Source: Alphaproteobacteria bacterium | GTDB taxonomy: Bacteria > Pseudomonadota > Alphaproteobacteria > Rs-D84 | Reading direction: 5' to 3' | NCBI GenBank assembly: GCA_017962125.1 | Contig: JAGCVZ010000002.1 | Span: 4,492 to 68,491, forward strand | DNA length: 64,000 bases | In this document: piece by piece, positions 899 to 6,007 of the stretch | Numbering within the stretch: position 1 is the stretch's first letter | Layout: each line of letters starts with the position of its first letter | The notes under the pieces: model-generated | Told to the model about the DNA's origin: nothing | The model's input: the letters and a program-made list of their open reading frames with translations, nothing else | Database searches by the model: none | Translations under genes and position numbers: made by a program

Positions 899-1312
899 AT
901 GAAAACATATATAACAAAAGATATAAATGAAACGCGTAATTGGGCATGTAATTTTGCAAAGAACTTGCATGCCCCAGTAACGATAGCGTTACATGGTGAT
1001 TTGGGTGTTGGAAAGTCAGAGATTGCAAGAACAATAATTCAAACGCTTTGTGGCCCAGATACTGTTGTCCCAAGCCCAACTTTTACAATTGTACAATCGT
1101 ATGACAAAGGAAAAGATAAAATATCACACTTTGATTTGTATCGTGTGTCGGATGTTTCGGAATTGGTTGAAATTGGGCTTTTGTATGCAGTGCAAAATGA
1201 TATCACTTTGATAGAATGGCCCGATATAGCAAAAGATTTTTTACCAAAAGATACTGTTCATGTATATATAACAGAATTTCAAGACGGTCGTAAAATAGAG
1301 ATTGCAGATTAG
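899..1312 (+). CDS. tsaE: tRNA threonylcarbamoyladenosine biosynthesis ATPase
   Basis: GDLGVGKS P-loop, SPTFTIV, HFDLYR, IEWP. Confidence 0.95.
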   Translation: MKTYITKDINETRNWACNFAKNLHAPVTIALHGDLGVGKSEIARTIIQTLCGPDTVVPSPTFTIVQSYDKGKDKISHFDLYRVSDVSELVEIGLLYAVQNDITLIEWPDIAKDFLPKDTVHVYITEFQDGRKIEIAD

Positions 1313-3096
1313 ATACTCTTGATAGATGGTAATAAAGACATTACCGCAAGAGGAAAGTCCGGCGCATGCTCAAGATATGAACCGCTTACCAATAAATCTG
1401 CGCCCGCGGCCCAACACAAGCGTGCGGTTTCTGGGTTTATGCCACCATCAACAGAGATGGTAAATTTAAGACCATATTTTTTTCGTGTTCCTGCAAGTAT
1501 GGAAATTTTATTTAGTACATTTGTATTAAATTTTTGCCCGGCGGCACCAGGAGAAACGCCCATTACCATGATTTCATCAATGTCTCGCAAAATTGTTTTT
1601 AGTAAAGATACCGAAGATTCTGGATTTAATGCGATACCTACGCGTTTTCCTGCGTTACGAACAATCTGAATCGCCCGGCGCAAACCGACAGTGTTTGTAG
1701 AAAGTATGACTGTATCTGCACCTGCATTTATCGCATCAGTTGCCCAGGCGGATGGTGCATCTGTCATTAGATGAACATGCAGATGACCAGGCCAATTTGA
1801 ACGAATTTTTCGTAATTCATCAATTCCCCCGGTGATTTTATCAACATAAAGCCCATCCATAATATCGACATGAATTATTGATATTCCACCGGCACGAAAC
1901 AAGGTATATGTTTCGGGGCATGTCATGTCAAAGCAAAGGGTGCTTGGCATAATCGGAATAAAGGTCCCGCTTTTTTTCTTTGATTTTGTGCGGTAAAAAA
2001 CACCAAAAATTTTATTTATGATTCTTTTCCATCTGTTGAGACGAGATATATATGCCTTGCGATAGGGTTTGGCGCAATCCCAGATATATTTTGCAAGTGC
2101 ACGAACTGTTGTATCCGGGTCAGTTTGTACAACCGGGATTTCAAATGTCTGTGATAACAATTTAATGATACCGTTCAACCTTGCACCACCACCAGTTATA
2201 ATGATTTCAGTTGGATGATATTTTTCAATGTATTTTGTAGAACTGTCTTTTATATTTTCTATGATGTTATAAAAGAAAGGGGCGACCATTTCATTTACAT
2301 CGGCACAAGAAAAAGCATATGCGCTGTCTGCGGGACTAAATCGAGCCATTTCGTTGGAATAAAGATTTGCAACATTTCTTTTAATTCTTTCTGCTTCTGA
2401 GAAAGATATGTCAAGTTTCGTTGAAATTTCTTCGGTCAAATCGTTTCCGCCAACAAAGTGTCCATCGTACCATATTAGGCCGCGGTCAGTCCAAATTGAT
2501 ACAGTGGTGTGTTCGGCACCAAAATCGATAAACATAACGTTTTTTTTCTGTTCGCGTAATACATTAAATTCAAGAAAATGTGGTGCATAAAAAGCCGATG
2601 GCTGTATATGTGATTGTCGCAAAAGACTTTGTATTTTTTGTATGCGTTCTTTTTCAAAAAAAAGTGCAGATATTGTTGAAACAAGGCGCGTGTCACTTAG
2701 ACCAATCGGGGTCAATAAATTTTTTGTTTTATCTGTATCGTAGCGTAGCGGTATAATATGCATAGGGTAAAAATCATCAGGAGCATCAATTTGTGCAATT
2801 TGTGCCTTGATATCAGATGGGGTTATTTTGTGTTCGCTTGTCCAATTACTTTCTTTTACCGATATATTAAAGAACACAGAACCAAAATTTCCTGTAATAT
2901 ACGCCGTATCAAAATGTGTCCCCATTTGTTGTTCAAGTTCATCAGCAACGGATTTTAATGCGAATACTGTATCAAAATCATCAACCGAATAATACGCGGA
3001 CTTATCAATCGTAGCATTTCGTATCCTGTGCGCAACACCGCGAACCCCGCATGTTCCGATGTCGATACATAAAAAGCAAGAATCAATCATTCGCAT
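1309..3096 (-). CDS. FtsA-like actin-fold cell-division protein fused to ribulose-phosphate 3-epimerase (Rpe)
   Basis: N-terminal DIGT, IDFGAEHT, GGNDLT, AERIK, TGGGA (FtsA), located downstream of ftsQ; C-terminal IHVDIMDG, HLHVHLM, ALNPES, PGAAGQKF, VDGGIN, GADLLVSGS (Rpe); one uninterrupted ORF. Confidence 0.88.
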   Translation of the reverse strand: MRMIDSCFLCIDIGTCGVRGVAHRIRNATIDKSAYYSVDDFDTVFALKSVADELEQQMGTHFDTAYITGNFGSVFFNISVKESNWTSEHKITPSDIKAQIAQIDAPDDFYPMHIIPLRYDTDKTKNLLTPIGLSDTRLVSTISALFFEKERIQKIQSLLRQSHIQPSAFYAPHFLEFNVLREQKKNVMFIDFGAEHTTVSIWTDRGLIWYDGHFVGGNDLTEEISTKLDISFSEAERIKRNVANLYSNEMARFSPADSAYAFSCADVNEMVAPFFYNIIENIKDSSTKYIEKYHPTEIIITGGGARLNGIIKLLSQTFEIPVVQTDPDTTVRALAKYIWDCAKPYRKAYISRLNRWKRIINKIFGVFYRTKSKKKSGTFIPIMPSTLCFDMTCPETYTLFRAGGISIIHVDIMDGLYVDKITGGIDELRKIRSNWPGHLHVHLMTDAPSAWATDAINAGADTVILSTNTVGLRRAIQIVRNAGKRVGIALNPESSVSLLKTILRDIDEIMVMGVSPGAAGQKFNTNVLNKISILAGTRKKYGLKFTISVDGGINPETARLCWAAGADLLVSGSYLEHAPDFPLAVMSLLPSIKSI

Positions 3097-3097
3097 T

Positions 3098-3778
3098 TTA
3101 TTTCACCAAAATTCTTGTGTCATCGCGCATGTCTATTACTTTCAAATCTTTTGATAAAATATTGTATTTTTTGTCCAAGACAACGATATTTCCGATTGCG
3201 GCATCTGGGCCTTTTTCAGGGAGCATAATAATTTTTCCATCAAGGGTTACCAAATTCCATCGCCGGTCATCAATCCATTCTAAATAATCAAGTACATGTA
3301 TAAGATTGTTCGCGGCTTTGGTAATTTCGCTGATGTTATTTGGGACATTACCGCGAAACATAACAATTCCTTCACCACGTACCTCGGATGGTTTCTTTAC
3401 AATCGTTCCATCGGCAGATATTGGATAATAATACATGCCGTCCGTCCATCCAGCAACCGCATGATAAAGATTCACACGAATATCTAGGTTGCCGTTTGCT
3501 AATCTGCGAACCGAGGATTGTTTGACCCCCGGGGTTTGAGAAATGCGCGCGTTTACAAGTTCTAGGTTCATAGCATGACTGTGTGTTCCGGGTGCAATCC
3601 CGGCCGCAGCAACAATTGTAGTAAGGTCTTTATCGGTTGTGTCGGCTGATATAGATATATGGCGAATCATTGATGTTGGACCGTATCCCATAAATGCCAT
3701 AACAATACGTGCCGCAAAATATATTGCAAGTAAAACAGCCGCAATAAAATACAACCAAAACCAGAGATTTCGTTTCAT
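3098..3778 (-). CDS. ftsQ: Cell division protein FtsQ/DivIB
   Basis: N-terminal TM helix, POTRA-like VKQSSVRR, RRWNLVT, C-terminal IDMRDDTRILVK; adjacent to ftsA. Confidence 0.88.
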   Translation of the reverse strand: MKRNLWFWLYFIAAVLLAIYFAARIVMAFMGYGPTSMIRHISISADTTDKDLTTIVAAAGIAPGTHSHAMNLELVNARISQTPGVKQSSVRRLANGNLDIRVNLYHAVAGWTDGMYYYPISADGTIVKKPSEVRGEGIVMFRGNVPNNISEITKAANNLIHVLDYLEWIDDRRWNLVTLDGKIIMLPEKGPDAAIGNIVVLDKKYNILSKDLKVIDMRDDTRILVK

Positions 3779-3873
3779 GTCGAAAATTATATCATATTTT
3801 GGTGGTCAGTGTTAGTGATTAGTGCAAATAATAGATTTTTATGAAATTTTTAACCGATATTTATATTAAACCC

Positions 3874-4254
3874 TTAGGTCGCACGTAACAAATAACCACG
3901 TTTAAACATACACTTGCGGTATGAGCCCACAGATCGAGAAGTTGTGTTCCTTGGGACAGATAGCAACGCGCGTTGTCCGACATCCTTGTATTCATTGGAT
4001 TGAAATGTTACCCAAAGTCCATCCCAATCCGGCATACGAACCGTTTGGTTGGGTGAAAGTAATTTGGCAAGACGTGATCGCGGCAAATATGATGGCGCAT
4101 TTATGCCGAGACAAGATTTGTGGTCACGGACAAACTGTTCCATGGTAACCGATTCATTTTCCCAATTTAAAATAGTGGCATCGTCTATGCTGCCCCTGTT
4201 TGGGGATGCACAGGCGCATAAACCTAGTAATAAAATTATTTTTAACATTCTCAT
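3874..4254 (-). CDS. Hypothetical lipoprotein
   Basis: Lipobox-like LGLCAC after a short hydrophobic leader; C-terminal CMFKRGY. Confidence 0.6.
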   Translation of the reverse strand: MRMLKIILLLGLCACASPNRGSIDDATILNWENESVTMEQFVRDHKSCLGINAPSYLPRSRLAKLLSPNQTVRMPDWDGLWVTFQSNEYKDVGQRALLSVPRNTTSRSVGSYRKCMFKRGYLLRAT

Positions 4255-4669: not shown

Positions 4670-6007
4670 ATGATAAACTTTTTGAAAAATTTTGTTTTGG
4701 TGTTGTTTGTCTGTATAATGATTGCAGGATGTATGGAGGCTAATAATCCATATAATACAGAAGGAATTGAATATAACACAATACAAGTTGTTGATAATCT
4801 TGTTATAGATGACAATTCTGTGCCGATTTTTCCAAAGAAAGCTGCTTTGACAACGGATACTGCACGTCGTTTTTCGATTGAATTGCCAAGACGTTGTACG
4901 GTGGATTGGGATTCTCAATCTGTGATATCTGTGGTCCCAGAAGAGAAAATAGAAATTGTAAGATTAAATGTTGGTGACCCGTTACCAGATTTAACTGTTT
5001 CGGATTACGATTTTCGAAAGCAAACTATAAAAGATGCGTTGGATAAATTACTTTCTGGAACGGATATTGCGGTCATAGAACAAGAAAAGATGTACGAAAG
5101 AATATCTGGGTCTATTGTGGGTGGAAATCTTGCGGATGCGGTGGATTTGATGGTTCATCTTGGGCGTGCATATTATTCGTATGATGCAAAACTTGGGGAA
5201 TTAAAATTGTTTAATCGTGGCAAGTGGTTGATTAAAATGCCAAGAAACGATGATATTGTTATGGCTATTTTGGATGCGATGCATGGCGCAGATGTACGAA
5301 ATGTAATCGTTGATTGGGCTGATAATACTTTGGTGTTTGAAGGTAATTATCAAACAGAGCGTGAAGTCGCAAGAATAATTTCTGATATAGCATCAAAAAA
5401 GTATGTAATGGCGTGGGATATGGATGTTTATCGTGTTTATCCGCGAACCGATAATCCAATTGTGTGGATGAATATGTTGCCCGCATTTGGTGAAAAAAAT
5501 ATAAAAATGTCTGTGCCTGGGGTTGTTGGTCGGGCTCTGGTCGTTGGACCAGAGGTAAATACAAAGACATTACAAGAGTTTTTGGCTCAACAGGCAAATG
5601 TTGTTTTGATATCTCAGGGACATTTTGTTGTGCCTGATGGTTGGCAATCTCGTTTTGATATCGGGCAATGTGGTAAAGAAGAAAGAATAGAAACAGACCT
5701 GATAGTGGGGGCAACTGCAGAGTATGTTGATTTTGCTGGCAAGGACAAGATAGATGCGAAAATTGTATTGCGCACCAGTAATGGGGAACTTTCGTCATTT
5801 TCTATTCCGTCCAGTGTCGGTGATAATTATGTCATAATTGGTATTCCGACACATTCTTTTGTGACAACCCCAGAAACATTGATAAGTCCTTTTGCAGAAC
5901 TTGTTGTGTTTATGTCGCCAAGAATAGTTTCTATTGTGAATCCCAGTGATATATCGGACAAAGCGCCATTGGTTGGTGATGAGTTACGAGAATGGTTAAA
6001 GAAATAA
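4670..6007 (+). CDS. Lipoprotein, possible PilN/BfpB-like (type IVB pilus) secretin
   Basis: Lipobox IAGC; STN-like segment (DFRKQTIKDALDKLLSGT), N-domain-like segment, beta-rich C-terminus ending ELVVFMSPRIV. Confidence 0.45.
   Translation: MINFLKNFVLVLFVCIMIAGCMEANNPYNTEGIEYNTIQVVDNLVIDDNSVPIFPKKAALTTDTARRFSIELPRRCTVDWDSQSVISVVPEEKIEIVRLNVGDPLPDLTVSDYDFRKQTIKDALDKLLSGTDIAVIEQEKMYERISGSIVGGNLADAVDLMVHLGRAYYSYDAKLGELKLFNRGKWLIKMPRNDDIVMAILDAMHGADVRNVIVDWADNTLVFEGNYQTEREVARIISDIASKKYVMAWDMDVYRVYPRTDNPIVWMNMLPAFGEKNIKMSVPGVVGRALVVGPEVNTKTLQEFLAQQANVVLISQGHFVVPDGWQSRFDIGQCGKEERIETDLIVGATAEYVDFAGKDKIDAKIVLRTSNGELSSFSIPSSVGDNYVIIGIPTHSFVTTPETLISPFAELVVFMSPRIVSIVNPSDISDKAPLVGDELREWLKK

Follow-up and report, generated by a model that had tools for sequence, protein, structure and literature searches.

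The window, a stretch of 64,000 nucleotides of contig JAGCVZ010000002.1 (assembly GCA_017962125.1) from an alphaproteobacterium of the GTDB group Rs-D84, carries an open reading frame (ORF) of 595 codons in which the cell-division protein FtsA and the pentose-phosphate enzyme ribulose-phosphate 3-epimerase (Rpe) are joined in one polypeptide. The translated frame contained no internal stop codon, and its start codon is either M1 (3096) or M3 (3090), the cluster representative in the database being 593 aa long. The Pfam search placed PF14450 (FtsA) at residues 189-327 with 46.3 bits (cut-off 31.8) and PF00834 (Ribul_P_3_epim) at residues 396-574 with 144.2 bits and E 4.5e-42 (cut-off 21.1), and it gave no match to SHS2_FTSA in the ORF at E<=0.01. 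Among the NCBIfam models, the ftsA equivalog TIGR01174 aligned over residues 43-330 with 83.3 bits, under its cut-off of 175.85. Over residues 382-587 the cut-off of the rpe subfamily model NF004076 was barely passed (165.4 against 165) and the rpe equivalog TIGR01163 reached 153 bits, under its cut-off of 212.6. The motifs FLCxDIGT (8-15), DFGA (191-194) and TGGGA (301-305) of the FtsA core are of the ATP-binding type. A first-pass annotation, made from the sequence alone, had described one 595-aa ORF joining FtsA and Rpe downstream of ftsQ; the continuous translation and both Pfam domains agree with this, and the neighbour at 3098..3778 has the domains of FtsQ (Table 1). Its domains were right and its boundaries were not exact, the start of Rpe being shifted to about residue 381 (nt 1956) and the end of the FtsA core to about residue 342 (nt 2071).

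The fusion was searched in a library of 5.8 billion clustered proteins, which returned 790 matches. The best 120 of these, derived from ENA, JGI, Logan and NCBI assemblies, were all 529-598 aa long, contained both Pfam domains and were 57-100% identical to the query. Where a matched protein has a name, it is 'pilus assembly protein PilM' or 'ribulose-phosphate 3-epimerase'. The distribution within the window's order was analysed in 61 genomes, of which 32 belong to its own family (four genera, including the window's genome, G000) and 29 to sister families. A full-length fused match was present in all 32 own-family genomes, at identities down to 37%, and the three genomes inspected showed single ORFs of 595, 592 and 585 aa. 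A scan with one genome per GTDB species yielded 65 loci carrying the fused gene; in 64 it is one continuous ORF of 552-604 aa, and the remaining one (L078) ends at a contig end. As the ORF is continuous in 64/65 loci of the fused clade, it represents an evolved fusion and not an error. The record titles of the carriers are Candidatus Enterousia spp. and 'Alphaproteobacteria bacterium' or 'Rickettsiales bacterium' metagenome-assembled genomes. Two fused loci with 42-43% identity (L075, L076) are titled 'uncultured Muribaculaceae bacterium', which clashes with the distribution of the gene, alphaproteobacterial in all other cases, and is probably due to mislabelling or wrong binning. A second library, of 1.84 billion proteins clustered at 50% identity, gave 34 matches at E<=1e-30, about 20 of them near-full-length fused proteins with 30-52% identity. 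Among the best 150 matches of this library, all proteins ranked after these were of 376 aa or less and consisted almost entirely of Rpe alone (about 190-310 aa), and no independent FtsA-Rpe fusion in other lineages was seen.

The continuity of the window's own copy was also followed in contigs from other sequencing runs. A contig of run X6 covers positions 1200-3900 of the window with 9 substitutions and zero gaps; 8 of the substitutions fall within the ORF, seven being synonymous and one giving I360T. A contig of run X5, which is from the same study as the possible source runs, covers 1755-3483 and is identical, and a contig of run X8 covers 1872-2315; all three span the linker without indels. 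Checks proposed in the first-pass annotation gave the following results: contigs from other runs cross the linker intact, the FtsA + Rpe architecture recurs in 65 species-level loci, and no second rpe or ftsA accompanies the fusion in its genome. That annotation had also named a stop codon in reads or relatives as the finding that would speak against it; such a stop is seen in the sister families, where the genes are separate, and not in the fused clade. The 595-aa ORF is a genuine and old in-frame FtsA-Rpe fusion with both halves under selection.

The structure of the fusion was predicted with AlphaFold2 (AF2) from a 15-sequence alignment, with a mean predicted local distance difference test score (pLDDT) of 86.7 and a predicted template-modelling score (pTM) of 0.59. 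The model revealed an FtsA-type fold at residues 5-341, a single long helix at 343-367, disorder at 367-377 (pLDDT <50) and a TIM barrel at 382-587. In the Foldseek comparison with the Protein Data Bank (PDB), the FtsA half matched 3wt0, 7q6i, 1e4g, 7q6f, 4a2a and 7q6d with template-modelling scores (TM) of 0.65-0.75 over 347-397 columns; among the matches listed, all those ranked above 20 were FtsA chains, and PilM reached TM 0.53-0.58. The Rpe half matched 2fli with TM 0.92 and a root-mean-square deviation (rmsd) of 1.5, 1tqj with TM 0.90 and 3ovq with TM 0.88, the matches to Rpe structures overall having TM 0.87-0.92 and rmsd 1.5-3.3. The hydrophobic moment of residues 350-369 was 0.64-0.77, and that of the C-terminal helices of sister-family FtsA was 0.38-0.74. 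The tails of 65 homologues have medians of 36 residues in length and +10 in net charge, the charge varying between +3 and +14; in the most divergent fused form, L086, the tail has just 15 residues and no helix. Judged from these sequence features, the tail helix is the one-time C-terminal membrane-targeting helix of FtsA, lengthened and now internal. The basic amphipathic linker quoted in the first-pass annotation is accordingly found in the model as a helix and a disordered stretch, and the amphipathic helix sits before the Rpe barrel, as expected from its statement that the FtsA membrane helix has become internal. A complex prediction of the FtsA core (1-342) with the Rpe domain (379-595), carried out without controls, gave a score of 0.00 and a mark of 0.32, which speaks neither for nor against a contact of the two domains. 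In view of the internal helix and the disordered linker, the fusion is probably held at the inner membrane with both domains free to move.

Table 1. Coordinates of the fusion ORF, its parts and the adjacent genes in the window
Feature	Position (nt)	Strand	Residues or length	Evidence or remark
Whole FtsA-Rpe fusion ORF	1309..3096	minus	595 aa	ATG start; stop codon 1309-1311
FtsA-like actin-fold ATPase core	2071..3096	minus	residues 1-342	Pfam, NCBIfam, AF2, Foldseek, motif conservation
Tail helix, basic amphipathic	1996..2070	minus	residues 343-367	AF2, hydrophobic moment, aligned tails
Polybasic disordered linker	1957..1995	minus	residues 368-380	pLDDT <50 at 367-377; tail charge
Ribulose-phosphate 3-epimerase TIM barrel	1312..1956	minus	residues 381-595	Pfam, NCBIfam, motifs, Foldseek
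ftsQ	3098..3778	minus	226 aa	POTRA and FtsQ C-terminal domains (Pfam, NCBIfam)
tsaE	899..1312	plus		convergent; 3' end overlaps the fusion ORF end by 4 nt

The selection on each part of the fusion was estimated from the ratio of nonsynonymous to synonymous substitution rates (dN/dS, NG86) in 15 pairs with at least 80% identity, and the mean pairwise identity was calculated for 65 sequences. The FtsA core showed a mean identity of 49% and dN/dS of 0.04-0.12, the tail 31% and 0.05-0.50, and Rpe 67% and 0.02-0.085. Purifying selection is thus strong on both halves. In the FtsA half D12, G193, T197 and G302 were invariant in 15 sequences and G14, D191 and G303 were at least 90% conserved, and the motif tables from 65 sequences agree with this result; the motifs are presumably the phosphate-1, phosphate-2 and adenosine-type nucleotide-binding loops of the ASKHA fold. 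In the Rpe half H409, D411, H442, M444 and D550 were invariant in 15 sequences and M413 and M512 at least 90% conserved, along with PGxxGQ, D550-G551-G552 and SGS, and the same motifs dominate in 65 sequences. We take H409, D411, H442, D550 and Met413/444/512 to be the metal ligands, the acid/base pair and the Met cushion of the enzyme. The motifs HVD, HLM and DGG, pointed out in the first-pass annotation as retained, are invariant or nearly so in the 65 homologues. The first codon of the Rpe domain is ATG in 33/65 sequences, a Shine-Dalgarno-like site lies ahead of the domain in 1/65, and no in-frame ATG occurs within the 40 preceding codons in 25/65; as the domain has no start of its own, a separate Rpe product is impossible in most species.

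The FtsA half is strongly diverged. Its TIGR01174 score is 83.3 bits in the window and 49.5 in the deepest genus, against 127.6-260.6 in the FtsZ-bearing sister families, and it is 17-20% identical to sister-family FtsA, with a core about 50 residues shorter. A deletion of about 10 residues in subdomain 2B, seen in comparison with three sister FtsA proteins, was considered as a mark of FtsZ loss and rejected, being shared by L017, which has FtsZ. Several housekeeping proteins of the fused family also gave clearly lower model scores than their sister-family counterparts, namely 207-215 against 389-403 bits for Transketolase_N, about 90 against 135 for PBP_dimer and about 205 against 242 for FtsK. 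These low scores indicate that the whole lineage is fast-evolving, beyond FtsA alone.

The window's genome (935,647 bp, 16 contigs, 94.3% complete) contained one Rpe match, namely the fusion ORF, and its only other PF14450 match was MreB. The fusion is the sole Rpe and the sole FtsA of this genome. A 225-aa frame in another genome of the same genus (G009:C2:30045-30617) is 29% identical to the fused Rpe domain. Transketolase and RpiB were present in one copy each in the window's genome and in two other fusion-bearing genomes (G052, G055), which is in accordance with the statement, in the accessible part of PMC12306168, that the non-oxidative steps of the pentose-phosphate pathway, apart from transaldolase, are found in most genomes of the group.

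The origin of the fusion was traced in the sister families. None of the 29 sampled genomes of these families has the fusion, ftsA and rpe being separate. In the sample the fusion is restricted to the window's family, together with a few lineages of greater divergence. At four loci (L017, L018, L020, L021) ftsA, encoding 402-426 aa, abuts or overlaps a separate rpe encoding 195-235 aa, and at L018 ftsQ lies upstream of ftsA. At a further locus from one sister family, L019 (G021:C2, 3993-5795), an ABC-transporter gene (ABC_membrane + ABC_tran) lies between ftsA and rpe. The sister-family FtsA products end in an amphipathic K/W-rich tail, and the fused tail aligns with these C-termini at a common Trp, after which about 18-20 extra residues lead to the start of Rpe. 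In a quick maximum-likelihood tree of the Rpe domain the 65 fused sequences fell on one side of a branch with a support of 100 in the Shimodaira-Hasegawa-like approximate likelihood ratio test (SH-aLRT), which is consistent with a single origin. The alignments and gene order suggest, as the most likely origin of the fusion, that ftsA lost its stop codon while overlapping with rpe. Since the two genes were overlapping neighbours already before they fused, an origin that was neutral or stoichiometric is no less likely than regulatory coupling.

FtsZ, which in most bacteria is the driver of cell division, was searched for in the whole clade. No FtsZ (TIGR00065) was found in any of the 32 fused-family genomes, which are 94-100% complete and include one single-contig genome (G052), against 26 of the 29 sister-family genomes, at loci away from ftsQA and in 24 of the genomes with a score over the cut-off. 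In the window's genome PF12327 and PF00091 gave no match at E up to 1, tblastn with four sister FtsZ proteins gave a best E of 0.5, and hmmsearch --max with a sister-FtsZ profile against its 5,498 six-frame ORFs gave a best E of 0.049. A C-terminal motif resembling the FtsZ tail of the sister families was found in no six-frame ORF of this genome in its strict form and in seven in its loose form, none of them C-terminal in a plausible protein. FtsZ was likewise found in none of five fusion-bearing genomes of greater divergence, which have 32-45% identity and no stated completeness. Fusion and absence of FtsZ thus coincide in 37/37 fusion-bearing genomes tested; these genomes are one lineage, and therefore the coincidence is not independent evidence. 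The first-pass annotation had observed that ftsZ does not follow at the locus, which holds and is an understatement for a 94%-complete genome in which no FtsZ was found; the absence throughout the clade had escaped it.

The other division proteins were surveyed in the same genomes. Two SEDS proteins are retained in 32/32 FtsZ-less family genomes, and two class B penicillin-binding proteins (PBPs), FtsK and ZapA in the window's genome, G052 and G055, with MreB in the window's genome. FtsQ, FtsK, FtsW, FtsI, ZapA and MreB remain, although FtsZ is not detectable in the clade. ZapA is otherwise known to bind FtsZ and may have another partner here. The ZapA homologue of the window's genome lies at G000:C7:27227-27484 (minus strand) and scores 40.2 bits with Pfam (cut-off 23.8); homologues are also present in G052 and G055. 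MinC was found in none of five genomes, and as two of these are sister-family genomes its absence is uninformative on the loss of FtsZ; FtsB/DivIC (PF04977) gave sub-threshold matches only in all five. In the only sampled genome of family f4 (G003, 93% complete), ftsQ is followed at L023 (G003:C23, 1710-3526) by a 368-aa FtsA-like ORF which has no Pfam or NCBIfam match and no rpe alongside. The only 'FtsZ' candidate of this genome, a 408-aa ORF (L022, G003:C18, 1519-2745), was rejected, as it is a 31-bit match without any tubulin-family Pfam match. Family f4 may represent another lineage of the order in which FtsZ has been lost or is very divergent.

The ftsQ stop lies 1 nt ahead of the fusion start codon, placing both genes in one operon. 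The order ftsQ then fusion was also found in G055, G026 and G036, and ftsQ precedes ftsA in the sister families. A convergent tsaE is likewise present in the family's most distant genus. Just upstream of ftsQ, a 126-aa ORF at 3874-4254 (minus strand) has a lipoprotein-like signal peptide and no Pfam match, and its C-terminal motif recurs in ORFs near ftsQ of G055 (L016) and G026 (L014). A 445-aa ORF at 4670-6007 (plus strand) has a hydrophobic N-terminal segment and no Pfam match; the end of a homologous ORF stands at the corresponding place in G055, at the start of L016.

Taken together, the results make it likely that the gene, which has become fixed in a single clade of gut Alphaproteobacteria with small genomes, encodes a genuine bifunctional fusion that originated by stop loss and whose halves both still work, the FtsA half without FtsZ. 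The synteny suggests that the ancestor had an ftsQ-ftsA-rpe operon with ftsA and rpe overlapping at stop and start, and that loss of the ftsA stop codon would have turned the two products into one polypeptide. Its C-terminal half would be the only ribulose-5-phosphate 3-epimerase of the cell, presumably active and working with RpiB and transketolase, and its N-terminal half would be the only FtsA, strongly diverged from the FtsA consensus. Between the halves the membrane helix of FtsA would persist in an internal position, strongly basic and amphipathic, ahead of a flexible polybasic linker. As the clade is without FtsZ, the FtsA half would have to act in a Z-ring-independent divisome with FtsQ, FtsK, FtsW and FtsI. 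The fusion would most likely have been fixed as harmless, or as a convenient 1:1 co-expressed pair.

Several observations weigh against this interpretation. Only one of the 32 family genomes sampled, G009 of the same genus, has a second stand-alone Rpe-like ORF. The quick tree did not place the fused Rpe beside the sister-family Rpe and gave it no supported position relative to sister-family and outgroup Rpe (long branches, support 23); descent from the neighbouring rpe is argued from synteny. The sub-cut-off scores of the FtsA half suggest that it may have lost FtsA function. The Rpe half is under the equivalog cut-off (153 against 212.6) and barely over that of the subfamily (165.4 against 165), and its capping loop is PGAAGQ, the usual loop in Rpe being PGFGGQ; the loop and the low model scores make a shifted substrate possible. 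The retention of ZapA would be unexpected if the lineage truly had no FtsZ. The linker may also be cleaved after translation.

Among the alternatives, the coupling of carbon flux to division that the first-pass annotation had raised as a possibility was weighed first, in which tethering of Rpe to FtsA lets pentose-phosphate levels or the conformation of Rpe gate the divisome. The fusion persists in all clade members sampled, its tail retains the basic amphipathic character, and the ftsA/rpe overlap already present in the sister families hints at an older functional link between the two genes. The pTM of 0.59 and the disordered linker argue against such gating, however; the known metabolic regulators of division target FtsZ, which is absent here, and the fusion is sufficiently explained by adjacency and loss of a stop codon. 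Nothing in the present evidence shows that the fusion evolved as a regulator, and this explanation is considered unlikely. A bolder proposal, which must be called distinctly unlikely, takes the loss of FtsZ and the fusion as one innovation: an oligomeric Rpe hub would cluster FtsA and build a Z-ring-free divisome with FtsQ, FtsK, FtsW, FtsI and ZapA, the assembly of which may depend on the pentose-phosphate state.

Replacement of the scaffold alone was treated as a separate case. Rpe enzymes are dimers or hexamers in their solved structures. After the loss of FtsZ, an Rpe oligomer could cluster several membrane-bound FtsA units, replace the multivalency of the Z-ring and nucleate a Z-free divisome. 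The fusion and the absence of FtsZ occur together in 37/37 fusion-bearing genomes and in 0/29 sister-family genomes, both halves show a long shared stem branch or strong divergence, and filament-forming FtsA structures are among the best fold matches of the FtsA half. The co-occurrence goes back to one evolutionary event, though, and hence gives no statistical support, and the 15-residue tail of L086 is without helix; clustering of this kind is quite improbable. The FtsA half could also be a decaying relic or a mere membrane anchor of Rpe that survives by attachment to an essential enzyme. This would fit its FtsA-model scores (83 and 49.5 bits against the cut-off of 176), its 17-20% identity to sister-family FtsA and its evolution, which is faster than that of the Rpe half (mean pairwise identity 49% against 67%). 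Either role is very improbable for a core with dN/dS of 0.04-0.12, conserved nucleotide-binding-type motifs, a complete fold (TM to FtsA up to 0.75), a reading frame unbroken by stops or frameshifts in 64/65 loci and ftsQ still directly upstream. Misassembly, or stop-codon read-through specific to one strain, has practically no standing against hundreds of independent assemblies with the same architecture and contigs of other runs that cross the linker without indels.

The probably bifunctional, FtsZ-independent fusion is of interest in several respects. FtsA is understood almost wholly as the membrane anchor of FtsZ, and the clade is a natural system for FtsA without FtsZ. It also offers a clean and datable case of gene fusion through probable stop-codon loss in an overlapping pair, and the two-domain identity corrects the database names 'PilM' and 'ribulose-phosphate 3-epimerase'. 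The literature searches, with supplementary gene tables outside their scope, found no publication describing an FtsA-Rpe fusion, in agreement with the first-pass annotation, which knew of none, and no publication linking Rs-D84 with FtsZ. FtsZ, FtsA and cell division are unmentioned in the accessible part of PMC12306168, which deals with the reduced genomes of the group.

The fusion was compared with canonical FtsA, represented by the structures 1e4g and 4a2a of T. maritima, 3wqt and 3wt0 of S. aureus, 7q6f and 7q6i of V. maritimus and 7q6d of E. coli. It shares the actin-like fold, the position of the gene right after ftsQ, the nucleotide motifs and the basic amphipathic helix after the core. 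It differs in falling under the family cut-off (83 against 176 bits), in having no FtsZ to bind, and in its helix, which is internal instead of C-terminal and is followed by a 215-residue enzyme. In comparison with solved Rpe (2fli, 1rpx, 1tqj, 3ovq) the full TIM barrel, the His/Asp/His/Asp set, the three Met, DGG and SGS are all present; unlike these enzymes, the fused Rpe is not free-standing, has no start of its own, carries the loop PGAAGQ and lies under the equivalog cut-off. UgtP, OpgH, KidO and GdhZ are separate metabolic proteins which regulate division via FtsZ. The fusion resembles them in that an enzyme of central metabolism is physically linked to a division protein; it differs in that the link is covalent, the partner is FtsA and FtsZ is absent, and any regulatory role is hypothetical.

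Bacteria without FtsZ include the Chlamydiae and Planctomycetes and, within the Alphaproteobacteria, Hodgkinia (Table 1 of PMC4164004) and Wolbachia supergroup J, which has lost almost all essential divisome genes (PMC10591338), as far as the accessible parts of these sources state. The fused clade, being equipped for peptidoglycan synthesis, lends itself to the question of how divisomes are organised in the absence of a Z-ring in bacteria other than Chlamydiae and Planctomycetes. As described for Chlamydia, FtsZ is missing while MreB, SEDS proteins and class B PBPs are kept. Unlike Wolbachia supergroup J, as described in the accessible part of its source, the fused clade keeps FtsQ, FtsA, FtsK, two SEDS proteins, two class B PBPs and ZapA.

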